Positions 6,978 through 50,769 of a stretch of DNA of 64,000 nucleotides are shown piece by piece (position 1 is the first letter of the stretch; each line of letters begins with the position of its first letter). The DNA comes from Paracoccaceae bacterium (GTDB lineage: Bacteria > Pseudomonadota > Alphaproteobacteria > Rhodobacterales > Rhodobacteraceae): NCBI GenBank assembly GCA_965221445.1, contig CBDCSF010000004.1, forward strand, positions 5,556 to 69,555, in the 5' to 3' direction. The position numbers were made by a program, and so were the translations under genes. Below the pieces are notes generated by a model. It was not told where the DNA came from and did no database searches. It saw only the letters and a list, made by a program, of their open reading frames with translations.

Positions 6978-7079
6978 GGTAAATTTTGGAGTGGATTGTA
7001 GGGAAAAGAATGTCTTTGTATGGGGAAGGTATTAGAATGCCATTATATGTAGTTATAATAAGGCCAATATCATACTTTA

Positions 7080-7115
7080 CTTGTCTTTTATTATTTTATG
7101 TAGTGTTTGGTAGTT
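7080..7115 (-). promoter_or_regulatory. Conserved box 1 (36 bp, inverted orientation) in the AT-rich region upstream of the topoisomerase gene
   Basis: The reverse complement AACTACCAAACACTACATAAAATAATAAAAGACAAG closely matches 37884-37919. Extra half-sites: TGTAGTT at 7048-7054 and AACTACCAA at 7171-7179. Confidence 0.6.
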
Positions 7116-7210
7116 AAGTGTAGTGTTATGTATTGTTTATGGTTTCATTGCTTGTCTTTTAATGCAAATAAACTACCAATTGAATTAAATATAGGGGGTC
7201 GTGAATTTTC

Positions 7211-11700: not shown

Positions 11701-11743
11701 TGGGCGTTTGCACCCCAGACCCCGCCATTCTGTAAAATAAAAA
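11701..11743. repeat. Box 2, short copy (43 bp identical to 40632-40674)
   Basis: TGGGCGTTTGCACCCCAGACCCCGCCATTCTGTAAAATAAAAA. It is preceded by three TTTTGGGTT motifs at 11633, 11659 and 11685 (26-bp period). Confidence 0.8.
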
Positions 11744-15152: not shown

Positions 15153-16741
15153 CCCAAAACAACTTGGACTGGAGTGACCTCCTCTATAATGCTGCAGACA
15201 GCACAACAATCATACAGGCCTCAGGTCATCTGGTTTATCAGGAATTGTTCGGCAAGGATTGTCCCCAGTCGGAAATACCGAACAGCATTGTTCTTGGGGA
15301 CTGGTTGCAGGATATTATCAGGAGAGAAACCTACATCTGTCCAGTTCTGGCTGGTACACTAGACAGCCAGGCAGCCCACTGGTGCCTGCGGAAGAATGGT
15401 GAAATTGAGGAAATTGCCGCTCGTCGTACTCCGAGATCCAAACCAATGGGAATAACGGAAATTCACGCCAGATGGCGTACCAAATGGGACAACTGGGAAG
15501 AAGACGATATCAAGGATGCCGACGAGGATACTCCAGGTCATCCGGTCATGGCACTTCTGCGCAAATGGTATGACAGATCAAGGGGGCTGGATGAATCGAA
15601 ACTTTATGTCAGCAAGGACCATTTTGTGCAGGGTTTTACTCCCGTTACCTTCGTGGGGCAGGGAGTCTTTCGCCGTAAAAACGAAGTCAGTGTCAGTCTC
15701 AGGGACTCCCTGTTGCCCGTTGCCCGGGTTGACGGGGAAATCATGGCCACCAAGGATCCCTTTTCGCAAAAATGTTTCTATACTCCCATGCCGCCCGTGC
15801 ATCAGAAAAAGCCCTATCGCAATACCCTTTTTGACCTTGAAGAGGAGAGCAGGGTAGAGGTCAAGGCGTCAAATGTCATCCTGGGAACCCTGGCCAACCA
15901 GTCCCTGCAGGCACCAAAGAATGCCCACCTCCGAACGGATATTTACAAGATCGGGGCGTTTTGCTTCCTCTTTCCACATCGTGTGAACATAAGTTTCAGT
16001 GATGCCAAGCGGATCATCATGGGGCATAAAAGCCGAAAACAGCTTCAAAAGGAACGAGTCAACCAGGCCATCAATGTCCTGAAGGGAATACAGTTCCTGG
16101 TTCATCACCAAAATGTTCCCATTTCCGTCCCGCTCATCAGTTATGATGTTGATGTTACCGGAAAGGAACCGATCTATATTCTGGGACGGGGAGAAAGTTT
16201 TCGCAAGAAGGTGGCACCAGGCTATATGGCGCTGGCTCCCCAGTGGACACTTTCAGGTGTCTTCACCCGTAAAATGAATAGCAAGAGTGGAGGAATTGAA
16301 CGTCTGATCAACGGTCTTGAAATGGTCCTGGCCAACAGTCGCTTCAACCGCAAGGGACCCCGCAGACGATTCTCGGAATTTCTGGAACCGGCTGATCGCA
16401 AGGCAACCGGTCCGGGCAAGCCAATGATGCTGACCTGGGAGGAAATGATGTTTACCGCCGGAGAATTTGTCGGGGACAGTGATCTGGAACGGCGACGTGC
16501 CTACCAGAACTGGAACAAGTGGATGCTCAACCTGCAGAAGAATGGATATTTCTGCAAGGATGGCAGGGAAGCCGAAGCCTATGACACAATTGAAATTGTA
16601 AGTAGGATAAGGGCATCGAGATACCAGCAGGCTGGCGCCTGGATCAGAGCTTCGAGCCGGTTTACAGAAGCGGTACGCCTGCAACAGCAGGGCAAGATGG
16701 AAACCATGACAGCAACCGAGTTCCTGAATTCCACACTATAG
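15149..16741 (+). CDS. hypothetical 530-aa protein, third gene of the primase-helicase operon (possible iteron-binding initiator by position)
   Basis: ATGA overlap with the helicase stop. No motif recognised; the function is inferred from the IncQ-like gene order only. Confidence 0.5.
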   Translation: MTQNNLDWSDLLYNAADSTTIIQASGHLVYQELFGKDCPQSEIPNSIVLGDWLQDIIRRETYICPVLAGTLDSQAAHWCLRKNGEIEEIAARRTPRSKPMGITEIHARWRTKWDNWEEDDIKDADEDTPGHPVMALLRKWYDRSRGLDESKLYVSKDHFVQGFTPVTFVGQGVFRRKNEVSVSLRDSLLPVARVDGEIMATKDPFSQKCFYTPMPPVHQKKPYRNTLFDLEEESRVEVKASNVILGTLANQSLQAPKNAHLRTDIYKIGAFCFLFPHRVNISFSDAKRIIMGHKSRKQLQKERVNQAINVLKGIQFLVHHQNVPISVPLISYDVDVTGKEPIYILGRGESFRKKVAPGYMALAPQWTLSGVFTRKMNSKSGGIERLINGLEMVLANSRFNRKGPRRRFSEFLEPADRKATGPGKPMMLTWEEMMFTAGEFVGDSDLERRRAYQNWNKWMLNLQKNGYFCKDGREAEAYDTIEIVSRIRASRYQQAGAWIRASSRFTEAVRLQQQGKMETMTATEFLNSTL

Positions 16742-16827
16742 GCCTGGTGACAAAAACCATCGTTTTGCCCTGTAAATTCAAAACCCTTATATGTGAGGGT
16801 GTGACAAAATGTCCCCGTGGTAATGAT

Positions 16828-17061
16828 ATGAAAAGGAACAGATTCAGAGAGACGGAATTCAGGGAGTTTGTCTCTGATAGCAACGATAGGGTCAGCAATC
16901 CGTTTTTTGACGGAAGAGAAGACTTGTTGGACCAACTGTCCACCCTGAATACCAATACCTTTTCGAAGGCCCTAAGGAAAGACATAAATTCAGGGGAAGG
17001 GTCAATTACCCTGCTACAGGGACCACCAGGGATAGGCAAGACCTCCCTGCGTTTGTTTTAA
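16828..17061 (+). pseudogene. 5' fragment of an AAA/STAND-like ATPase, paralogous to the N-terminus of 45940-47559
   Basis: FFDGREDLLDQL...ITLLQGPPGIGKTSL aligns with FFTGREDILQAI...TQIIQGPPGVGKTSL. The ORF stops 3 codons after Walker A, and all three frames are closed downstream. Confidence 0.6.
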
Positions 17062-17105
17062 AATTCCCCTGCTGTAGGAATTCACTGTAAATAAAGGATA
17101 AAACG

Positions 17106-17858
17106 ATGGTAAAACTACTAGATGGCACTTGTGGGAAAGATGATATAGTAGCCATTCTTGATCAAATACAGGAAAATTGTCCAAATCCAAAGACGACTTC
17201 GAAAAAATTGTGGAAACTCCGTCAAAAAACGAAAATGGACGAGGAAAAATACTCCCCAGAAATATTACTTGAGAGATCGGTTGCTTTGCTGGCCAAAAAT
17301 AAGCATATGAATGATTGGTACAATCAATGTCCAATTGCCTCTGGTATATGTGGAAACAACAAACGCGTGTGTATAGATCTCGTCAGATGGGATCCAAAGA
17401 AACAGAGATTGTGTTTAACAGAATTGAAATGGGGCAGCGATAATCCCAAAAAGGCAGTGCAACAGATTCTCCGTTATGGAGCAATTTATCTTTATTGTCG
17501 ATGCCATAAGGACAAGCTTAATTTTGTTAACAATGAACTGATGTCAGCCACAAAAATAGTACTGCAGGTTGTTGCCCCAGCAAAATATTATACCGATCAT
17601 ACACAACGTGAAGAAGTATGTAATTGCTTAAAACAAGCAAGGGAAAGCATACATCTAATCAATAATGTACCAGAAATGAAGGGCCTTACAATTTCTTTGG
17701 ATGTACTATCCTTACCCGAATGGTTCCACCCATTACCTTTCAGAAATTACATGGAAGTTAAACAAGCTTGTGGCAAAGAATTGACAAAGGATGGAAGAAA
17801 TGTCATCAATGCTTTCAATGAATTAAGCCCTCATGACTTTGACACTTTGAGGTCTTGA
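17106..17858 (+). CDS. PD-(D/E)xK-like (RecB/Cas4-type) nuclease candidate
   Basis: 250 aa in a low-GC segment. Motif order: CIDLV ... LTELKW ... QQILRY (D, ExK, QxxxY). Confidence 0.4.
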   Translation: MVKLLDGTCGKDDIVAILDQIQENCPNPKTTSKKLWKLRQKTKMDEEKYSPEILLERSVALLAKNKHMNDWYNQCPIASGICGNNKRVCIDLVRWDPKKQRLCLTELKWGSDNPKKAVQQILRYGAIYLYCRCHKDKLNFVNNELMSATKIVLQVVAPAKYYTDHTQREEVCNCLKQARESIHLINNVPEMKGLTISLDVLSLPEWFHPLPFRNYMEVKQACGKELTKDGRNVINAFNELSPHDFDTLRS

Positions 17859-17993
17859 ACCCCTGTCCCATGTGGATTGACCATTTGACTAAGGCACTAC
17901 AACCCTCCTTTTTGGGTCTTTTCCACCGACCTCTTCATCTGCCATCCAGAGCTCAGTCTTCTTCCCTTGACCCCCTGGACCAAATTTCAACCG

Positions 17994-18436
17994 TTAGTGA
18001 CATGTGCCACTATTCATCTTCCACCAATTCATGTGTTCTGGTCGCCTTCTAGACACCCATCGCCCTGTAGATGGTTTCAGCCCCCGTGTGGTGGCCGAAG
18101 GCATGACATATCGCCGGCCAGTCTCGGTGTCCCGGATGATCAAACATTCCTGAGATTGGTGATCACTCCATGCAACCCGTCCCATCATCGCCCGTGGATT
18201 GCTGGACGTCTAGAGTTTCTTCAAAAGCTATTCAGTACTTCTCAAGCGGTCAGCTTCATCTTTCCTGGTACGGGCCGGACTGTAGGACACAACCAACCGG
18301 CGATCGTTATGTCGAAAGACACCAGATGACCGGGAAGATGAAGCAATTTGGCTCCCATGATATAATGATCACCTTCTTCTTCAATGGCTGTAAGATTGGC
18401 ATCGGTCATCAGTCCGGCGTCAGCCGCATGAACCGC
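17994..18436 (-). pseudogene. Remnant of a DDE transposase (IS4/IS1634-like C-terminal part), frame-shifted and lacking its 5' end
   Basis: Minus-strand translation gives VHAADAGLMTDANLTAIEEEGDHYIMGAKL, then in another frame RLVVSYSPARTRKDEADRL, with stops in between. The N-terminal part is replaced by the 3' end of the 18443 gene. Confidence 0.5.
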
Positions 18437-18442
18437 TTATAA

Positions 18443-20122
18443 CTAGGGGTGAAAAGTTGAAGTTGGCTGAGGAGTGGCCTCTTGTTTGGGTTCAGGGTCA
18501 TAATCTGTTGCTAGGTCAGGGTTCGGGTCAAAGCCCAGTTCACTTGCCATCTGAGGCAAATCAAGAGCTTTAATTCCTTTAGCACCCCATTTGCCTTTCT
18601 GAGCATCCGTAAACACAGGAGCAATAAAGAGGTGTTCAATATTAGGCGGTCGGGTCAGGCCGTTCTGATCATAAAGGCTGGCCAGAGAGTTTTCAAAATA
18701 GGAACCAGGTTTGGTGAAGGTGTCAAACTTTCCAGCATTCCTCTTGCAACTGGCAACCTTGCACGCAATAGCCTTGGCAAAGGGTTGATCAGCCATGTCG
18801 GCAAAAACATCAACTTCTGGACCATGGACAGTCTGGACATTGTACAATCCACCACAGGCCCGAATCCCAATCTCCTGAAAGCGCTGATCCTCAAAGAATT
18901 CCGCTGCAAGCCGTTCCAGATCAAGACCTTCATGACCAGTTGTCCGATGGAGTAACTGCGTAAACTTGACATTCGGTTTGCCGCTACTCAGACCTTGCTG
19001 GTTCAGCCCAAGCCTTTGGACCAGCAACTGGTGTCTCGTGTCATTGTCGATGATGCGATACCGGGACGGGGTTGTTTCCTCAGGCCCATAACTTTGTATG
19101 CCTTGGATCATTCGGAGATGATGCTCCAGCATGACCAGATTTCGTTCGACAGTCTTTTGCCATTCGTACTTACCGAACTCCTTGATTTTATCAGGCTGGT
19201 TAAAAATTTCCGTTCGAGGTACACCACCTGGTTTACCCGCACATAGTATGTACAAGAGATTTTCAGCCTCAGGGTTGAGTTCGATATAAGACTTGTAATT
19301 GTAGGCTTCTTCGGGATTCAACAAGGGACGAAGCGATTCATGACGCCAGAAATAGAGACGCCAACTTTCAAAATCAGTACAGACTAAATTCGGGTCTCTT
19401 CCCTCATACTTACGATAAGACGTCCAGAGGCCAGGAATTCCACCATAAACGGAATAGAGAGTCAGAAACTGGCGGGCATCCCGAAGCCAGCCTTGATCAC
19501 AGGCCATCTGCAGGAGCGGTGCGGTTGTCAACTGTTGCAGGGTTATGCCAAAAGAAAACCTGTTATAAAGAGGTTCTTTGTCACTACCCAGCAGCCTCAT
19601 CATGTTTTGCTGATGCGATCCCGCTACAACTAAACCACCACCGGTGTAGGGTGTCTGTGTGGAGAGGTTTTCATCCTGAATGAGTTTGATCTTGCTGACA
19701 AGACCATTATAAATTTCAATATTATGGAATTCATCAAGGCACACAACTGCACCTTTTGTAACGAGATGACTGAGCTGGCGGGAAAAAGAATCTATATAAT
19801 GTCCTGGTTTGTTCGCATCATAATCCAACATGAGATCACGAAGACCTTCGGCCTGAATCCTCCTGCCCAACTCTCGGCCCAGATCTTCTGAAGATTGAAG
19901 TGTATCGGGAATTTCCATGTACAGAACGGGTTTCTGTTGATTCTGAGGAATTGATCGAATATTGGAGATGACAGCGCTTAGCAATTCGGTCTTGCCAATC
20001 CGGCGGCGACCAATGAGACGAGTACCAACAGCATGATCTCTTTGCATGCTGGTTTGGAGTTTTCCTATTTCTTCATCACGGCCATAAAACCGCCAGGGAT
20101 TTGAACTGCTTTTGGTCATCAT
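18443..20122 (-). CDS. ATPase (archaeal-type ATPase, PF01637-like) with a C-terminal DUF234-like nuclease-fold domain
   Basis: N-terminus WRFYGRDEEIGKL...LIGRRRIGKTELL (Walker A). Walker B VVCLDEFHNI. C-terminal EVDVFAD...ASCKR resembles DUF234. Confidence 0.65.
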   Translation of the reverse strand: MMTKSSSNPWRFYGRDEEIGKLQTSMQRDHAVGTRLIGRRRIGKTELLSAVISNIRSIPQNQQKPVLYMEIPDTLQSSEDLGRELGRRIQAEGLRDLMLDYDANKPGHYIDSFSRQLSHLVTKGAVVCLDEFHNIEIYNGLVSKIKLIQDENLSTQTPYTGGGLVVAGSHQQNMMRLLGSDKEPLYNRFSFGITLQQLTTAPLLQMACDQGWLRDARQFLTLYSVYGGIPGLWTSYRKYEGRDPNLVCTDFESWRLYFWRHESLRPLLNPEEAYNYKSYIELNPEAENLLYILCAGKPGGVPRTEIFNQPDKIKEFGKYEWQKTVERNLVMLEHHLRMIQGIQSYGPEETTPSRYRIIDNDTRHQLLVQRLGLNQQGLSSGKPNVKFTQLLHRTTGHEGLDLERLAAEFFEDQRFQEIGIRACGGLYNVQTVHGPEVDVFADMADQPFAKAIACKVASCKRNAGKFDTFTKPGSYFENSLASLYDQNGLTRPPNIEHLFIAPVFTDAQKGKWGAKGIKALDLPQMASELGFDPNPDLATDYDPEPKQEATPQPTSTFHP

Positions 20123-20295
20123 CGTTCCTTATCCTAACTTCTATGCATGTGAGTACATGTCAGCACCCTCTCATATAAGGCCTGACATGATCATTCGCAA
20201 GGAAAACAGTGATGAATTGGACTGCTGAGACTGTTATGAAACTTCCATCCTTGAGCTTCAAAATACTCGTGGTAATTTATAGGAATTCCAGAATT

Positions 20296-21114
20296 CTACC
20301 TTACAGCCTTGAGAGGAAAGGTGCCGTTAGTCAACATACTGATGGATCCTGCTATGGTTTCATCCAGTTTGGGACTGCTGAGCTCATAGGAAGGTTTTTT
20401 GCCAGGTTCTCTTTCCACTGCATCACGATACCAGCCATCCTGTCCCAAACCCAGATATACCATTTCCGTATCAGACGGTTGGTATTTGACAATCGGATTA
20501 AAGAGTGCCCTGTTTCGAAACAGTTTTTTACGTTTGGCAGGAGTAAGTTTTACTACCAACGGACAGGGAACATTATCAAAAATAACATCACCTCGAGAAA
20601 TATCATCCATTAAACAGTCGCTGCGAGATACACCAAACCAAAGTTCAAGATAATATCTCATTGTGGCTATTGAAGAAAAACTGGCGACAGGTTCGTAATC
20701 CCCTTGGCATGTTTCGTTTACCAGGAAAGCCCCAACAAACTGTTTACTGCTACCGGGAGGGCGATAATCTGAAAGGTACAGCCACTGTTCCTCGAATGGG
20801 TAATCAAATCCTTCTTGTTGTAATCTTGATCCAAGATGATCTAAATCTTCGAAGTGAAGTCTTTCGCACTCCAGCACCTCTCCCCTGTATTCATCATATG
20901 ATTCCTGCTCCATGTTTGGTTCGAGATAGCGGACCGAAGCCAGGAAAGCCCAGGATTTACCTATAGTAACCAGAAAAGTGTTGAAGGGGTCGTTTTTGTA
21001 CATGACGTGCTCTACTCCTATTGTTAACGCTATATGAATTTGACTTTTCCAATGATTCAATTGGAAGGGATCCATCAAGATTGCATCGAAAACGTTTTCT
21101 GTTGTGAAGGTCAT
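20296..21114 (-). CDS. hypothetical protein, paralog of the C-terminal half of 21442-22440
   Basis: ATG 21114 follows GGGGAGAG plus 7 nt. Shared blocks: LTPAKRKKLFRNRALFNPIVKY / LTTSEHRKLRLQGVFHTPIIKF, and GQDGWYRDA / ADDGWYRQA. Confidence 0.5.
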   Translation of the reverse strand: MTFTTENVFDAILMDPFQLNHWKSQIHIALTIGVEHVMYKNDPFNTFLVTIGKSWAFLASVRYLEPNMEQESYDEYRGEVLECERLHFEDLDHLGSRLQQEGFDYPFEEQWLYLSDYRPPGSSKQFVGAFLVNETCQGDYEPVASFSSIATMRYYLELWFGVSRSDCLMDDISRGDVIFDNVPCPLVVKLTPAKRKKLFRNRALFNPIVKYQPSDTEMVYLGLGQDGWYRDAVEREPGKKPSYELSSPKLDETIAGSISMLTNGTFPLKAVR

Positions 21115-21457
21115 ACCAGTTCTCTCCCCAGATTGGCATGTTGATGGAACGGGCAAACCAGTATTCAGCAAGAGCTCCGGAAGATTTCTCCCAGCCCGGT
21201 AGCATGAAGATCCCATGACATTGGGTGGCAAGTACCATGATATCATGAAGCATGATGATTCTGATATCCAGGGGGGATTTCGTATCAGGTTTATCGGTTG
21301 GTTTGTCCTGCAAGTCATGAGGATTGATTGAGGCGTATCCCAGAGAATCCAGATATGTGACCGCCTTTGCAAAGGCGGGACGGTTACCTGATTTCTTGCC
21401 CCTTATCGGTCCTGAAATATAGAGGGAGGGTGGATGGTTTGTCACGGTTTCAGCCAT
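20957..21457 (-). CDS. DUF4406 (nucleoside 2-deoxyribosyltransferase-like fold) protein
   Basis: LYISGPIRG...NRPAF...INP...GIFMLPGWEKSSGALAEYWFARSINMPIW matches the DUF4406 pattern. The last ~50 codons are low-quality and overlap the next gene. Confidence 0.65.
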   Translation of the reverse strand: MAETVTNHPPSLYISGPIRGKKSGNRPAFAKAVTYLDSLGYASINPHDLQDKPTDKPDTKSPLDIRIIMLHDIMVLATQCHGIFMLPGWEKSSGALAEYWFARSINMPIWGENWYDLHNRKRFRCNLDGSLPIESLEKSNSYSVNNRSRARHVQKRPLQHFSGYYR

Positions 21458-22440
21458 TTTCCGCTGGAATTCCGAAATTTGTACAGGCTGCGAAGAATGG
21501 TTTGACCAGCCCTGGGGGATGTGATGTCGGTGTTCATTCTGGTATGGGCAGATTTGTTGAGACTAAACTGTTCTTCATCATCGCCAGGGTTAGAATGTTT
21601 CCTGGATGGATAATGAAAAACAGGTCTAGCCTGACGATACCAGCCATCATCCGCCAGATGCAGACAAAAAAACGTTTTTTTGGAAGAAGAATAGGGGGGA
21701 TGGGGTACACAAAACTTGATGATTGGAGTATGGAACACCCCCTGCAGTCGTAATTTGCGGTGTTCGGAAGTGGTGAGGGACCAGTGTTTGAATTTATCAT
21801 CTTCGTCAATCCATCGATGCCATTCCAGTCTGAGACGATCCTCCTGTTCAAAGAACCAGATCATGCGTGCCAGAGAGGTAAAAGCCAACATGTCCTGCCT
21901 GCTGTCCCTGGTGACGAGATAACAGTATAACTCCTTCTTTGTTCCACGGGGTGTTGGGGGAGCCCAGTCGGAAATGGAAGACCATAGATTTTCAGTGTCA
22001 TCCGGCATGAGTTTTTTACGTTTGCCATACATTTCCGAAATTTGGGTCATCAAATCATCGGCATTTTCCAGCTGTTTCTCAAATTGAGACCTTTCGAAGT
22101 TCTTAATCAACCTTCTTGTGGATAGGGTGACAGTAACAACCCTGCATTCAACAAAACGGTTACCACCCAGGGGAGTGGTTATTCGCATTCCAGCTCTGAG
22201 ACCACCTGGGAAGTATGGGGTGGTCAAGGCAGGGTTATCTTGCCGGGTTGTTGCAGTAACCCGATCCAACTTATCACGCAGATTATTTTCCATCTCCTGT
22301 AGTGGTTGAAAGAAGGGATTCAATATCAAAACGCCCGAATCATACAGATCCCGCCTCAGGTAGTCCCTTGTTTCCTTGCTTGAGTGTTTCCTCAATTCAG
22401 AACCATTGGCAACATTCGTGTCCAATTCGACACCATACAT
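21442..22440 (-). CDS. hypothetical protein (332 aa), first gene of the minus-strand cassette
   Basis: Long ORF divergent from the T4BSS operon. It overlaps the DUF4406 start by 16 nt. Its C-terminal half is paralogous to 20296-21114. Confidence 0.55.
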   Translation of the reverse strand: MYGVELDTNVANGSELRKHSSKETRDYLRRDLYDSGVLILNPFFQPLQEMENNLRDKLDRVTATTRQDNPALTTPYFPGGLRAGMRITTPLGGNRFVECRVVTVTLSTRRLIKNFERSQFEKQLENADDLMTQISEMYGKRKKLMPDDTENLWSSISDWAPPTPRGTKKELYCYLVTRDSRQDMLAFTSLARMIWFFEQEDRLRLEWHRWIDEDDKFKHWSLTTSEHRKLRLQGVFHTPIIKFCVPHPPYSSSKKTFFCLHLADDGWYRQARPVFHYPSRKHSNPGDDEEQFSLNKSAHTRMNTDITSPRAGQTILRSLYKFRNSSGKWLKP

Positions 22441-22501
22441 GTTTCAACTCTCATAAATGAACTACAAAAAATATCAATAGTAGGTTATTTAATATTAATA
22501 T

Positions 22502-22549
22502 AACTACTAAACACTACATTAACAAATATATGTAGTTTTATTAACTACA
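22502..22549. promoter_or_regulatory. Box 1 copy plus palindrome in the divergent promoter region
   Basis: AACTACTAAACACTACATT at 22502-22520. Palindrome TGTAGTT-TTATT-AACTACA at 22531-22549. Extra AACTACA at 22460-22466. Confidence 0.6.
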
Positions 22550-22669
22550 GGAATCATTATCATGCCAGGGCAGCCAATCTTTTTGTGTATGCTCATCGCT
22601 TTGCTCTTTATACACATCGGCTTCGTTCTTATGATTGCTCAAGGTTTTCACAAATTTGGAGGATCATCC

Positions 22670-23062
22670 GTGACAAAAAAGAGAAGATCATCAATTACTA
22701 CCTTTCTGATAACCGGTCTCTGCCTGATGCTGGTAGCACCACTGGTCCATGCCCAGTCTTCTCAGGATTTCGGTTCCATTGCCGACAATTTACGGGGGCA
22801 GCTTTCCAATTTCGGTCAGCTGGTAGGCGGTGTATCTGCCCTGGCCGGAATTTGCCTGGCCATGATCAGCATGGTGAAGTTCAGAAATTACTCTTCCAAT
22901 CCACAGGATCCAAACAACAAGCTCAGCTCGGTCCTGGCTTATCTGATCGTCGGTGTTGCCCTGATCGGTTTACCGGAACTGCTTGATGTCGGAATAACAT
23001 CCCTGTTCGGCGGGGGATCACCAACCACGACTGATTTTGATGGCAACAATCTCCTGAATTGA
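22670..23062 (+). CDS. small T4BSS inner-membrane protein (IcmD/DotP / TraR-like; a VirB2-like pilin fold is not excluded)
   Basis: GTG 22670 follows GGAGG plus 7 nt (ORF-track start 22562; ATG 22631 also in frame). It has a signal-like segment ending VHAQS and two further hydrophobic helices. It lies immediately upstream of IcmJ-IcmB. Confidence 0.5.
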   Translation: MTKKRRSSITTFLITGLCLMLVAPLVHAQSSQDFGSIADNLRGQLSNFGQLVGGVSALAGICLAMISMVKFRNYSSNPQDPNNKLSSVLAYLIVGVALIGLPELLDVGITSLFGGGSPTTTDFDGNNLLN

Positions 23063-40510: not shown

Positions 40511-40552
40511 GCCGGCTGAGTCCTCCCTCCTCCCTTCACTCCCTCTTACCTC

Positions 40553-40674
40553 CAGCAGGACCTGTCGTTCCCGTCTTTCGGAAGACATTCTTACTTGTTT
40601 CCCTTTCCTGTGTCCAGGTTCGGTCAACTTGTGGGCGTTTGCACCCCAGACCCCGCCATTCTGTAAAATAAAAA
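40553..40674. repeat. Box 2, long copy (~122 bp intergenic repeat)
   Basis: Near-identical to 44155-44276. Its last 43 bp are identical to 11701-11743. It lies between the dotL stop and the dotB start. Confidence 0.8.
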
Positions 40675-44121: not shown

Positions 44122-44154
44122 TTAGGGAATTATAATTAGCACTCTCTTGCCCTT

Positions 44155-44276
44155 CAGCGAGACCTGTCGTTCCCGTCTTTCGGCCGATTCTCCTCTTTGT
44201 TTCCCTACCCTGTGTCCAGGTTCGGTCAACTTGTTGGTGTTTGCACCCCAGGCCCCGCCATTCTGTAAAATAAAAA
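44155..44276. repeat. Box 2, long copy
   Basis: It aligns over its whole length with 40553-40674. It is followed by the inverted repeat TGTGTAT-N6-ATACACA at 44305-44324. Confidence 0.8.
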
Positions 44277-44363
44277 TACTCTCAGACCTCTTTACAATTT
44301 GTCATGTGTATGTCTGTATACACACAATTGAATTGAAATTGTTTGAAAAGGGAAGGGGATTAC

Positions 44364-45413
44364 ATGCCTCTATCATCTTCAGGAACAACACGCCAGAGAA
44401 AATTTTCTACTGCCATCATCAATGGGTGTACCGGTCAGGTCTCGGAATATCTTGCTGAAGGGATCAACCCCAATGACCATCACCCGGAAGGACTAACACC
44501 CCTAGCCCTGTCCTGGCAAAACAATGATTGGTTGTGTGCGGAACTTCTGTTGAATTATGGTGCTCGGATCAACGGAACAATGACTCATGACGGCATGGGG
44601 GATGACAACACCCTTTTACATCTTGTTTGTGCCAAACGCAGTGCTGATCCCGCCTGGATTTCCTTCCTGGGTGAACACAGGGCCAACCCTGATGCTGAAA
44701 ACAGTTTGGGACTGACACCCATGTATTATGCCACCTCCGTGTTCAGTGCGAGGAAGATCGGAGCTCTTGCTGCGATTGGAGCTTCCGGTTCACGTATCTA
44801 TCGCAACCGTCCGGTACTTCATATGGCTGCAATCAAGCATTCTGCCCGACTTGTAACTTCACTCGTGGACGCCGGCACCTCAATTGACTGTAGGGACGAA
44901 GATGGTCGAACGGTATTGCATTATGCCAATCTCTTCCGGTCATACCGTGTTCTTGATGAGGTTTTTGGCCTCGGTGCCAACCCCAATGCACTTGACATCT
45001 GGAGTAACACGCCACTCCATACGATTGTCAGTACTCTTATCCATCACAGTCTGCATCCTGTTTTTCTGGATTCTTTCCTGACGGCCGGGGCCAGACTCAA
45101 TACCCGGAACAGGGATGGGGAAACCATTCTACACAAGCTTCCATGGCAGAAGCCTTCACGGGCAAGAAACTGGCTTGAAAGACTGCTGGCTGCCGGAGTT
45201 AAAGTTAATATTGCGGACAGAAAGGGGGTTACTCCCCTGGAACTTGCTGAGCAACATCAGGACAGAAGTCTGGTCAATATGCTCCTGGCTGCCGGTGCCA
45301 GGAAAGCTGAAATCAAATCACAAGTTGCGTTTCAATATAATAGACAGAATCTTGCCATCTCTCCAATTGAAGACAGGACCGGTCAAACCCATATCGGAAG
45401 GGTAACGATATGA
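44364..45413 (+). CDS. ankyrin-repeat protein (about 8 repeats)
   Basis: Repeated G-x-TPL-H/x-A ... LL..GA.pN blocks (GLTPLALSWQNND, NTLLHLVCAKR, GLTPMYYA, RPVLHMAAIKH, GRTVLHYA, NTPLHTIV, GETILHKL, GVTPLELA). ATG 44364 follows GGAAGGGG. Confidence 0.85.
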   Translation: MPLSSSGTTRQRKFSTAIINGCTGQVSEYLAEGINPNDHHPEGLTPLALSWQNNDWLCAELLLNYGARINGTMTHDGMGDDNTLLHLVCAKRSADPAWISFLGEHRANPDAENSLGLTPMYYATSVFSARKIGALAAIGASGSRIYRNRPVLHMAAIKHSARLVTSLVDAGTSIDCRDEDGRTVLHYANLFRSYRVLDEVFGLGANPNALDIWSNTPLHTIVSTLIHHSLHPVFLDSFLTAGARLNTRNRDGETILHKLPWQKPSRARNWLERLLAAGVKVNIADRKGVTPLELAEQHQDRSLVNMLLAAGARKAEIKSQVAFQYNRQNLAISPIEDRTGQTHIGRVTI

Positions 45414-45826: not shown

Positions 45827-45939
45827 TCTATTTCAGGAAATGGTAAGCCAATAAATTACGCTAATATTTAAAGTAAGCGGGATATACTGACCAACCCTTC
45901 TTTTGCTTGATAATAGCCATATTTAGGTATAAATCTGAA

Positions 45940-47559
45940 ATGGAACAGCTTTTTGGAATTGCGATTATGACCAAGCCTTACAGATCCGAACTGATGGAAA
46001 GATTCCTGCGAGAGGAGGATAGGAACATAAATCATTTCTTTACAGGTCGTGAGGATATACTACAAGCTATCCAGTCTAAAGCCCTTGCTGTTAATGAACA
46101 GACCCAAGCCAAAATCTCAAGTTCTCCTGCTGCAGGCCTTACCCAGATCATTCAGGGTCCACCGGGAGTGGGAAAAACGAGCCTTCTCGAAAAAATCAGA
46201 CAGGATAGTCTAAAGGTATTGAAGGAAAACAAAAAAGGACACAAGACCATACCGGTTATGATTACGAACCCACGCCGTCTGTCCTATGAAACACTTGGCA
46301 AACGGATAGCGGAAACGATAACTGAACTGTCGCAGGAACTTGGCAGTGTCAAGAATATTGACAAGATAAAAGGATCTCTAAAGGCCGTCTCATCCATAGG
46401 TATACCGGGAATAGTTGAAGTGGATCTTGATGGAACTCGTACCCTTAAGAAAAAAAACCTTGTTCCTGAGGGATACACGATCATTCTGATGATAGATGAA
46501 ATTCAGAATATTCCACCTGACAAGGATTCCGAGGCAGCAATGGTTTTGGAAAGTCTGCATGGCGGCAGCGATGGCTACCCCATACTTCCAGTTGTAGCAG
46601 GACTCTCCAGTAGCAGGGGTATATTAACCCATTACGCCTTTTCCCGTCTTGGAGGATGGGCACTTCACAATGTACCAACGCTTACGGCGAATGAGGTCCG
46701 AGAATCTTTTGAAAAATTTATAGGGTATTTCAATATACGGTCAGATAAGGACACAACCAGAATCTGGTCCGATTTCATGGTTGACTGGTCGGGAGGCTGG
46801 CCCAAGCATCTTCAGAATACAATGGCGGTTCTTGGTAGGTTTATTCATTGTCTGAAGGATCAGGGAAATCTGACAATCGCTGATCCTCATCTAGTCAAGA
46901 AGGCAGCTTTCCAAAAAAAAACTGAATATTACAAAACCAGGTGTGGATTATTTGATTCCATGCCCGTAATTATCGGAGAGATAATGGCTGAAGTGGGATC
47001 AATACCAAAATCTCAGGTTGAAATTGTAAACATTTCCCGGGATATTTATATGAGTTCGAAGTGGAAACCCATAATTGAGGAACTTGATTTTCCCGTTCCA
47101 AATTTCCATTATTTGCTACACAACGGTTTTATCGATAATGCTCCAGAACCATTTGAGGATTGTTATCATTGTCCGATTCCATCCTTGCAATCGTTTATAG
47201 TAGCGACGACAGGATCAGGAATTCATACAGCAGTATATGAGGGTGATGAGGGGAGCATAAGGCCCCTCATACAGAGAGGGCATGATATCAATGGCCAGGA
47301 TGCCTGGGGACGAACACCCCTGCATATTGCCGCCGAGAACAACTGGGATCGGGTGGTAGCTGTCCTTCTTCAGGAGGGTGCAGACCCGGAAATCCGTGAC
47401 CAACAGAACAACCGCCCTCTGGAATTGGCAAGGGAGGATTCTGCATCCCACCTGAAGCTCATGAGGGTGTCTGTTGCCATAAAGGATAATAACCCAACTG
47501 ACACTCAACAATCAAAGCTTACAGAAAACCAGTCGGTTTCATCCCGCCCCAAAATGTAG
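45940..47559 (+). CDS. AAA/STAND-like NTPase with C-terminal ankyrin repeats
   Basis: FFTGREDIL, Walker A IIQGPPGVGKTSLLEKI and Walker B TIILMIDEIQNI. C-terminal GRTPLHIAAENNWDRVVAVLLQEGADPEIRDQQNNRPLELA. Confidence 0.75.
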   Translation: MEQLFGIAIMTKPYRSELMERFLREEDRNINHFFTGREDILQAIQSKALAVNEQTQAKISSSPAAGLTQIIQGPPGVGKTSLLEKIRQDSLKVLKENKKGHKTIPVMITNPRRLSYETLGKRIAETITELSQELGSVKNIDKIKGSLKAVSSIGIPGIVEVDLDGTRTLKKKNLVPEGYTIILMIDEIQNIPPDKDSEAAMVLESLHGGSDGYPILPVVAGLSSSRGILTHYAFSRLGGWALHNVPTLTANEVRESFEKFIGYFNIRSDKDTTRIWSDFMVDWSGGWPKHLQNTMAVLGRFIHCLKDQGNLTIADPHLVKKAAFQKKTEYYKTRCGLFDSMPVIIGEIMAEVGSIPKSQVEIVNISRDIYMSSKWKPIIEELDFPVPNFHYLLHNGFIDNAPEPFEDCYHCPIPSLQSFIVATTGSGIHTAVYEGDEGSIRPLIQRGHDINGQDAWGRTPLHIAAENNWDRVVAVLLQEGADPEIRDQQNNRPLELAREDSASHLKLMRVSVAIKDNNPTDTQQSKLTENQSVSSRPKM

Positions 47560-48315: not shown

Positions 48316-48368
48316 TTATAAGTCCCTTTCGCAATTCCGACGGTCAATAAAATGTCCATCAATCCGGG

Positions 48369-48445
48369 ACAGTAAAAGCCTCCTCTCCAGAGAAATTTCA
48401 TGAGCATACACATTTAAATTTTGCAATTTCCCGATGTGTATGAAC
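48369..48445. promoter_or_regulatory. Box 3 copy plus 9-bp inverted repeat upstream of the rep-like gene
   Basis: 48369-48416 matches 50551-50597. CATACACAT (48405-48413) and ATGTGTATG (48434-48442) form an inverted repeat with a 20-bp spacer. Confidence 0.6.
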
Positions 48446-50226: not shown

Positions 50227-50550
50227 AAAATAAATATTAAATAAATATAAAAGAAGGGGCAATCCGGATCGAATTCAGGCAGGGTTTTTAGAACCGTAAG
50301 GACCCAACCCCTTTTTGTCGCTTTGCTCCAAAAACCCGTTGACCCCACCCATTCCCGCGGTGGAAACAGTGCATAAGTTAACCATCAATTTTGCGGCCTT
50401 CGGCCTGTTATGAAAGGAAGAACAGGCGGAATCAAATGGACAATGGGGGATTAAAAGGCTGCCAGGTTCCACAGGATAGCCGTGAGAGTCAAAGAAACCG
50501 GTTGGAGGTATCCGGAAAGGCAGGGAGATTAAAATACCCGTCAGCCTAGA

Positions 50551-50597
50551 ACAGTAAAGCCTCCTCTCCTGAGAAAATTCATGAGCATACACATTTA
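50551..50597. promoter_or_regulatory. Box 3 copy upstream of the 50770 gene
   Basis: ACAGTAAAGCCTCCTCTCCTGAGAAAATTCATGAGCATACACATTTA. It is followed by the palindrome GTATCC-ATG-GGATAC. Confidence 0.6.
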
Positions 50598-50769
50598 GTT
50601 TTTGTATCCATGGGATACGAATCCTAATGATTGTCAGGAGATGTAGTCGATCCAAACTTTTGGAAATAAACGGTCAGATTAAAAAAATGCAAGTCGGTTT
50701 TGACATTTGCACATGCAACCCGAGAGTTAAGGTTAAACGTGTTTAACCATTATGTAAGGAGTAAAAACC

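Follow-up and report, generated by a model that had tools for sequence, protein, structure and literature searches.

Two separate cargo units beside the type IVB secretion operon of a putative IncI-like conjugative plasmid

Proteins with a DUF4406 domain have a fold reported to be related to nucleoside 2-deoxyribosyltransferases (NDTs), and folds of the NDT type serve as effectors in known defence systems, retron Eco1 being one case. A literature search on DUF4406 itself returned no assigned function and no demonstrated substrate. PDC-S27 is an unvalidated single-gene phage defence candidate, in which an ATPase is fused to a PD-(D/E)xK domain (PMC12988326). A predicted DUF4406 enzyme and a predicted PDC-S27 protein are encoded close together in the stretch of DNA analysed here, a 64,000-nucleotide (nt) window of contig CBDCSF010000004.1 from a Paracoccaceae bacterium, which belongs to a conjugative element that has a type IVB secretion system (T4BSS). 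Four minus-strand open reading frames (ORFs), denoted here gA, gB, gC and gD, occupy positions 18443-22440 of the window, where a previous reading made from the sequence alone (the sequence-only reading) had placed them and had proposed that they form one defence or counter-defence cassette. We found that the region consists of two separate cargo units, a gA-gB-gC operon and a self-contained gD; the split between the units is observed directly from homology blocks.

Our explanation for the region as a whole, to which we assign a probability of roughly 70%, is that a novel conjugative plasmid of the IncI-like kind (T4BSS plus thin pilus), hosted by an uncultured gammaproteobacterium, has a cargo hotspot here, situated between a replication module (primase, helicase and a protein of 530 amino acids (aa)) and the T4BSS operon, and that the two units in this hotspot are functionally independent. 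The features on which this explanation turns are as follows.

gA, 21442-22440, minus strand: ORF of 332 aa with isoelectric point (pI) 9.4, the first gene past the divergent promoter; residues ~150-332 are paralogous to gC
gB, 20957-21457, minus strand: ORF of 166 aa, DUF4406 (PF14359) with a predicted NDT-like fold and a ~55-aa C-terminal extension
gC, 20296-21003, minus strand: orphan of 235 aa with pI 4.9, the same as gene call P0021; its ortholog is P0023 in the sister plasmid
gC-gD spacer, 20123-20295, minus strand: 173 bp containing the homology-block boundaries (blastn)
gD, 18443-20122, minus strand: 559 aa, AAA+ ATPase (ATPase_2 type) with a predicted DUF234-type, PD-(D/E)xK-like C-terminal domain; full-length PDC-S27 match
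mobile gD block, 18478-20242, minus strand: union of the DNA homology to the chromosomal copy and to the sister-plasmid copy

Homology blocks across the four genes

The sole relative of the plasmid that we found, here called the sister plasmid, is a 116,288-bp contig of a gammaproteobacterial metagenome-assembled genome (MAG). Its corresponding region (L007) is fully syntenic with the window, encoding DotG, DotH, DotI, a primase-like protein, DotM, a 1019-aa protein, an IcmJ-like protein and a pilin-like protein on one side of the slot, and a 535-aa protein, an AAA_25 helicase, a primase, topoisomerase III and an M15 peptidase on the other. Thirteen syntenic backbone proteins are 49-88% identical between the two plasmids, mostly 63-88%. 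In the slot itself, from the T4BSS operon to the 535-aa gene, the gC ortholog P0023 is the only gene in the sister plasmid; gA, gB, gD and u250, the ORF convergent with gD, are missing from it. A PLSDB plasmid DNA search with the window gave no match, and a GTDB genome scan returned the sister plasmid alone. Scans of JGI metagenomes with a gC-family profile and with the 530-aa protein as anchor were both negative, as was a scan of IMG/VR with the 530-aa anchor.

The nearest homologs of gD, P0002 (90% identical) and P0003 (86%), are encoded on MAG chromosomes between icd and a DoxX gene, in loci downstream of a suf operon and of genes for catalase and isocitrate dehydrogenase. A longer contig (L003) showed that alaS and recA follow the DoxX gene, and that a fragment of an AbiD gene adjoins the gD homolog. 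No genes resembling gA, gB or gC were found within 10 kb of the chromosomal gD homologs. Comparison of the window with one chromosomal locus (L001) detected 90.65% nt identity over 1733 bp, at window positions 18478-20208. This block comprises the gD coding sequence plus 86 bp upstream and ends before gC.

A gD homolog of 80% aa identity (P0031) is present in the sister plasmid too, in a different hotspot and beside a RES-domain gene; ahead of it come, in order, the genes of the coupling protein, DotB, IcmT, a 480-aa protein, an ankyrin protein and a 138-aa protein. DNA homology between the window and this locus (L018; 82.8% over 1757 bp, window 18492-20242) includes the coding sequence and ~120 bp only. 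A homolog of 44% identity adjoins a Type ISP restriction gene and an ApeA-like gene. The neighbours of gD vary by context: icd with DoxX and AbiD, ankyrin with RES, Type ISP with ApeA, and gC with u250. The 86-120 bp of the spacer closest to gD (from 20123 to 20208 or 20242) belong to the mobile unit, and gD together with ~90-120 bp of upstream DNA behaves as a self-contained module of one gene, found at changing sites in chromosomal islets and in plasmid hotspots.

The sequence-only reading had set co-conservation of gA, gB, gC and gD in other genomes as the test of its cassette. We found no locus in which more than one of the four families occur together, and for this reason the four-gene system is refuted. 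That all four genes make up one novel defence or counter-defence system, composed of a nucleotide enzyme, two adaptor paralogs and an ATPase-nuclease, is very improbable. Such a system would draw on the adjacency of the four genes on one strand, on gD being a candidate defence gene and on the use of NDT-like folds as effectors in retron Eco1. Against it, gD and its upstream DNA form a separate homology block, gD stands alone in chromosomes and in the other hotspot of the sister plasmid, and the sister slot holds gC alone. The 173-bp gap between gC, which stops at 20296, and gD, which starts at 20122, had been described by the sequence-only reading and is real; it parts gD from the overlapping genes gA-gB-gC, and PADLOC gave no match for gA, gB or gC.

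The proposal that the genes are accessory cargo of the T4BSS element, apart from its known transfer and replication functions, holds, as does the assignment of the ATPase to defence, in the sense that it falls in a candidate defence family; what does not hold is the grouping of four genes as one cassette. The sequence-only reading had also not recognised the arrangement as a named system. Part of it does have a name: gD has a full-length match to PDC-S27 in PADLOC, whereas PADLOC is silent on gA, gB and gC. It counts against our explanation that co-conservation was judged from one sister plasmid and very few genomes. Adjacency on the same strand is not evidence for a system, and here a single sister plasmid and a few chromosomal homologs sufficed to split the cassette.

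The gD gene and its relation to PDC-S27

gD matched the PADLOC profile of PDC-S27 (PDLC04985) with E = 4.1e-39 and 132.8 bits, residues 9-528 aligning with profile positions 3-482 of 484; a second PADLOC model, PDLC04984, matched at 8e-14. By its sequence, gD is classified as a new member of this known candidate family. The Pfam models ATPase_2, AAA_14 and AAA_16 all scored below their cutoffs on gD (ATPase_2, 24.9 vs 33.2 bits). The Walker A motif GRRRIGKT (G38-T45) and the Walker B motif DEF (130-132) are invariant in an alignment of 15 sequences. A gD-family profile searched against the PDB matched the archaeal Walker ATPases 2fna (4e-14) and 2qen and, more weakly, TnsC and ORC4; PDB sequence searches with gB, gD and u250 gave nothing useful. 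The likely start of gD is its second ATG (20119).

In the C-terminal part of gD, E403, D438 and S458-x-K460 align with the E...D...ExK of DUF234-carrying proteins. Two homologs, P0014 and P0015, which align with 82-84% of gD, match DUF234 (PF03008) above cutoff at residues 338-437. The DUF234-type tail that had been ascribed to the ATPase is thus supported by transitive homology, because it is these homologs, and not gD, that match the family.

Domain logic and neighbourhoods rich in Abi, RES and restriction genes mark gD as a putative sensor-nuclease, dependent on nucleoside triphosphate (NTP), that would act on invading nucleic acid. The ORC/STAND-like AAA+ NTPase would sense foreign nucleic acid or an infection cue; sensing would then license the C-terminal PD-(D/E)xK-type nuclease (E403, D438, S-x-K460) to cut DNA, and the outcome would be to shield the host-plasmid pair from phages or rival elements. 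Several observations speak against this activity. gD has no direct match to Pfam DUF234 (PF03008), residue S458 lies where the (D/E)xK motif has an acidic residue, and an hhalign comparison with the gD tail alone was weak (E = 0.0024, probability 12%). In addition, a published phage test of candidates in E. coli B included one cloned PDC-S27 representative, which was not one of those giving protection from T4, T5 or T7 (PMC12881386). The case for a sensor-nuclease is weakened because PDC-S27 is unvalidated and because of the serine in the nuclease motif. gD is also a natural case in which a PDC-S27-type gene has changed place among chromosome islets and a pair of plasmid hotspots, which supports the view of it as an autonomous module.

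The gD-proximal part of the spacer probably carries gD's own promoter, for which TTGCGA-17-TATATG, read by eye, is a candidate. A consensus promoter and terminator scan of the gC-gD spacer detected no strict site, and this type of scan was not enriched over shuffled sequences. Just past the gC stop, at 20282-20296, are two GAATTC hexamers with TG between them (GAATTCTGGAATTC); this element, placed where gC ends and the gD unit follows, may form a short hairpin or bind a protein.

The hotspot that holds the gD homolog in the sister plasmid is variable too. It lies between the ankyrin/138-aa genes and a DUF5131 gene, at window positions 45907-47559 (plus strand) and at 10001-12962 of L018. Its content is a 550-aa protein with AAA_22 and ankyrin repeats in the window, and the gD homolog with a 391-aa RES-domain protein in the sister plasmid.

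The gA-gB-gC operon and its control region

gC starts with an ATG at position 21003. A GGAG ribosome-binding site stands ahead of this codon, and the resulting 235 aa are identical to the independent call P0021. This start is preferred over a TTG at 21372 because the independent gene call and the homologs support it; the 358-aa ORF beginning at the TTG (20296-21372) overlaps gB out of frame and was rejected. gA and gB overlap by 16 nt and gB and gC by 47 nt, and because of these overlaps the three genes look translationally coupled in a single operon. The GC content is 0.438 for gC, 0.453 for gB, 0.464 for gA, 0.471 for gD and 0.377 for u250. Among the backbone genes measured it is mostly 0.50-0.54, with 0.48 for a pilin-like ORF, and in the related MAG chromosomal loci it is 0.41-0.43. 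An Rfam scan of 16700-22700 returned zero RNA families.

The assignment of gB to DUF4406 by the sequence-only reading proved correct. gB matched PF14359 above cutoff (E = 1.1e-16, 61.4 bits vs a cutoff of 22; residues 11-109 against profile positions 2-89 of 91) and phrog_355, annotated as nucleoside 2-deoxyribosyltransferase, at 5e-23. It keeps the family motifs YxSGP and LPGWEKSxGAxxE (E98): its signature Y13-I-S-G-P17 plus L86-PGWEKSSGALA-E98 was aligned with seven phage and plasmid homologs, and G, S, G-A and E are invariant among them. A PDB sequence search with gB found no characterised member. The PHROG annotation, the fold relationship and the motif together point to an enzyme predicted to act on the N-glycosidic bond of a nucleoside or nucleotide.

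Relatives of gB, with 28-39% identity, were detected in 414 phage records and 235 plasmid records. All but six of the latter (229/235) are typed as non-mobilizable and most are from Klebsiella. A size of ~50-56 kb is common among the listed plasmids, and Klebsiella phage phiKO2 has a similar gene; judging by this size and by the phiKO2 gene, many of them may be phage-plasmids. In two DUF4406 loci that we inspected, the gene lies among early or accessory genes, including orphan DNA methyltransferase genes, an HNH gene and a gene for a dATP/dGTP pyrophosphohydrolase. This company of orphan methyltransferase and MazG-like genes in phages and phage-plasmids agrees with an accessory character of the operon.

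The paralogy of gA and gC, previously noted from the blocks SDWAPP/SDYRPP, LTxxxxRKL, P-I-I/V-K and DGWYR, was borne out: all of these fall in the BLASTP alignment, which shows 29% identity over 157 aa (E = 7e-7). A local alignment of the two scored 92, compared with 32.7 +/- 5.1 in 1000 shuffles (maximum 65, z = 11.6), and a 36-nt DNA repeat covers the DGWYR codons. The two proteins are opposed in charge, gA being basic (pI 9.4) and gC acidic (pI 4.9). A full HMMER search of 1.84 billion representative proteins with a gA plus gC profile detected four members, namely gA, gC, P0022 and P0023, and word-indexed searches of the large protein database, with gA and with a gA/gC/P0022/P0023 profile, returned the query proteins alone. 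gA has no match in Pfam, NCBIfam, PHROGs or PADLOC. Known-family searches with gA and gC together (Pfam, NCBIfam, PHROGs, PADLOC, PDB profile) were negative, the Pfam search at E <= 10 giving a lone match with an E-value of 2.2. AlphaFold2 models were unusable, with a predicted local distance difference test (pLDDT) score of 34 for gA from a single sequence and 36 for gC from a 4-sequence alignment.

gC and P0023 (250 aa) are 41% identical over 126 aa (E = 3e-26), compared with 49-88% for the backbone proteins, and gA is related to P0023 far more distantly (E = 0.007). Homology at the DNA level also links the regions upstream of gA and of P0023. As P0023 stands alone in the sister slot and the upstream DNA is homologous, the sequence comparison identifies gC as the ancestral occupant of the slot, gA, gB, gD and u250 being additions or differential losses; by the same kind of comparison, gA is assigned as a diverged, basic paralog of gC. 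The remaining family member, P0022, is part of a frameshifted gC-like remnant in a MAG chromosome, 73.6% identical in nt sequence over 458 bp. This pseudogene (L008 9864-10325, L009 461-922) spans just the C-terminal ~150 aa, that is, the paralogous domain, and is located in MAG chromosomes, with a RecD2-like helicase gene on one side and a PDC-M38 A+B pair (AbiL-like ATPase plus DUF3226) on the other. Upstream of it is a gene for a 940-aa protein with a ZorB/MotB-like C-terminus. Together these four proteins form an orphan family that, in a poorly known lineage of IncI-like plasmids, is fixed beside the T4BSS promoter and is here combined with a DUF4406 enzyme.

The operon is read from a promoter divergent from the T4BSS operon, and the two share one intergenic region.

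divergent control region, 22441-22561, no strand: 121-bp spacer between gA and the first ORF of the T4BSS operon, with box ATGTAGTGTTTAGTAGTTA and a palindrome

The 19-nt box ATGTAGTGTTTAGTAGTTA is at 22501-22519 on the strand of gA and overlaps a promoter-like site at 22525-22497; a perfect palindrome, GTAGTT-N5-AACTAC, is at 22532-22548. Copies of the box with 1-2 mismatches are located at 7098-7116 (plus strand), upstream of the topoisomerase III gene, and at 37883-37901 (minus strand), in the spacer before the coupling-protein gene. The box has the form ATGTAGTGTTTRGTAGTT(A/C) across the three sites, and the copies at 7098 and 37883 fall within a 43-bp inverted repeat (7073-7115 / 37884-37926, 91%). 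The control region with its box 1, which the sequence-only reading had described as common to the genes on the gA side and to the transfer operon, is therefore real, since the box lies at 22501-22519 and recurs at 7098 and 37883. By its sequence, the box is probably the operator of a plasmid regulator, and its presence in backbone control regions suggests a common regulation of gA-gB-gC and backbone functions. In the sister plasmid, the DNA ahead of P0023 does not keep the exact box.

What such a regulator could be leads to the main rival for the role of these genes, in which gA and gC are themselves regulators or maintenance factors of the backbone, with gB a passenger between duplicates. They could, for instance, bind to box 1 or to the palindrome and so control transcription from the T4BSS, topoisomerase and coupling-protein promoters. 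This is rather unlikely, though it accounts for several of the observations above: in both plasmids gC or its ortholog points away from the T4BSS operon, the box overlaps the gA promoter-like site and recurs at two other backbone sites, the intergenic region holds a perfect palindrome, and gA is basic with a conserved basic patch, AKRKKLFRNR. It fits poorly with the Pfam searches, in which no helix-turn-helix, ribbon-helix-helix or other DNA-binding family appeared even at E <= 10, with the acidic pI of gC, and with the absence of the exact box ahead of P0023. gC also diverges far faster (41%) than the backbone, whereas the promoter-containing flank is ~77% identical in nt sequence, and the gC-like remnant sits in a chromosome with no type IV secretion system (T4SS) nearby, beside the PDC-M38/AbiL-like pair.

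That remnant, and the clustering of the operon with gD and u250 in a low-GC hotspot, would agree with a defence or abortive-infection module, in which gB is an effector that depletes a nucleotide or nicotinamide adenine dinucleotide (NAD) and gA and gC are sensor-like or antitoxin-like partners; effectors of NDT fold in known defence systems, as in retrons, go in the same direction. We consider this module quite unlikely, and weaker than the regulator alternative: the sister plasmid retains gC alone, without the enzyme, DUF4406 is overwhelmingly a phage and phage-plasmid gene, and PADLOC returned no matches.

The role that we favour for gA-gB-gC, with low confidence, is an establishment or counter-defence function expressed with the transfer genes, on the basis of fast divergence, duplication, accessory GC content, the shared box and a phage-type enzyme. 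The operon would be switched on along with the transfer functions and would aid establishment of the plasmid in a new host through counter-defence or a nucleotide-pool function. The part of gB would be to remove or swap the base of a nucleoside or nucleotide; gA and gC would be its lineage-specific, fast-evolving partners. In its most specific form, a new counter-defence/establishment operon co-regulated with the T4BSS, in which the basic and the acidic orphan paralog and a DUF4406 enzyme of N-glycosidase fold are switched on from the box-controlled promoter region and destroy or sanitise a nucleotide (an immune signal, a chain terminator or an NAD-related metabolite) in the newly entered cell, the proposal is unlikely to be right. 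Three points weigh against it: no homology, structure or phenotype points gA-gB-gC to counter-defence; a regulatory role for gA and gC fits the divergent-promoter position equally well; and no relaxase or origin of transfer (oriT) that could mark a leading region was found in the window among the ORFs scanned. If true, such an operon would be the first function assigned to DUF4406. The orphan paralog pair with its DUF4406 enzyme is the only part of the locus with real novelty, which is modest and speculative.

The plasmid backbone and comparison with known systems

The T4BSS genes in the window encode DotA/TraY, DotM, DotI, DotH, a DotG/TrbI-like protein, DotB and the coupling protein, together with an IcmJ-like HNH protein. 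A 1020-aa protein encoded just upstream of DotM, the counterpart of the 1019-aa protein of the sister plasmid, has faint VirB4/TraC-like matches and a position as for the large T4BSS ATPase. R64-like thin-pilus genes and genes for topoisomerase III, a primase and an AAA_25 helicase are also present.

u250, 17106-17858, plus strand: 250-aa orphan ORF convergent with gD; GC 0.377, the lowest in the region

u250 is the third cargo item of the hotspot and may be a defence-type gene. It has no family match in Pfam, NCBIfam, PHROGs or PADLOC and no PDB match. By eye, its CIDLV...LTELKWG (IDLV...ELK) is PD-(D/E)xK-like.

On the other side of the divergent control region, the first ORF of the T4BSS operon (22562-23062, plus strand) encodes a pilin-like membrane protein with weak T4SS_pilin and TraQ matches. 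Its homolog in the sister plasmid has 131 aa, with strong similarity from residue 29 on, and by this comparison the annotated ORF probably starts too early. The two plasmids are, however, highly conserved in their DNA at 22575-22620, and for this reason the true intergenic control region may reach ~22645.

Several further repeats are scattered over the backbone. A 126-bp intergenic repeat (87% identity) is present at 40549-40674, upstream of dotB, and at 44151-44276, upstream of the ankyrin gene; it is found at matching sites of the sister plasmid (L018 4485-4616 and 8210-8331), and its last 43 bp recur with 100% identity at 11701-11743. A 76-bp repeat pair lies at 48348-48423 and 50530-50604. 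Ankyrin-repeat proteins are encoded at 44343-45413 and 45907-47559. They recall translocated effectors of the Legionella/Coxiella type, and by this analogy hint that the T4BSS may deliver proteins besides DNA.

Three described systems come closest to the locus. gD resembles PDC-S27 in its full-length profile match, its Walker A and B motifs, its C-terminal E/D/K nuclease-type motif and its occurrence as a stand-alone gene, and its family is found in islets with AbiD, RES, Type ISP and ApeA genes. It differs in length, the gD clade having 544-588 aa compared with ~435-455 aa for classical DUF234 proteins, in having S-C-K for E-x-K, in lacking a direct DUF234 match and in an ATPase_2 score below the gathering cutoff.

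gB resembles the DUF4406 proteins of phages and phage-plasmids in scoring above the family cutoff, in keeping the invariant motif and in being carried by a mobile element among accessory genes. Unlike them, it is just 28-39% identical to the listed relatives, has a ~55-aa C-terminal extension, and is located on a conjugative T4BSS plasmid between two orphan paralogs.

The region as a whole resembles the cargo hotspots of conjugative plasmids and integrative and conjugative elements (ICEs), with two slots whose content differs between sister plasmids and with low-GC cargo that includes nuclease/ATPase, RES and ankyrin genes. It differs from them in that one slot holds a conserved, fast-evolving orphan, gC, driven by a promoter region that it shares with the T4BSS operon.

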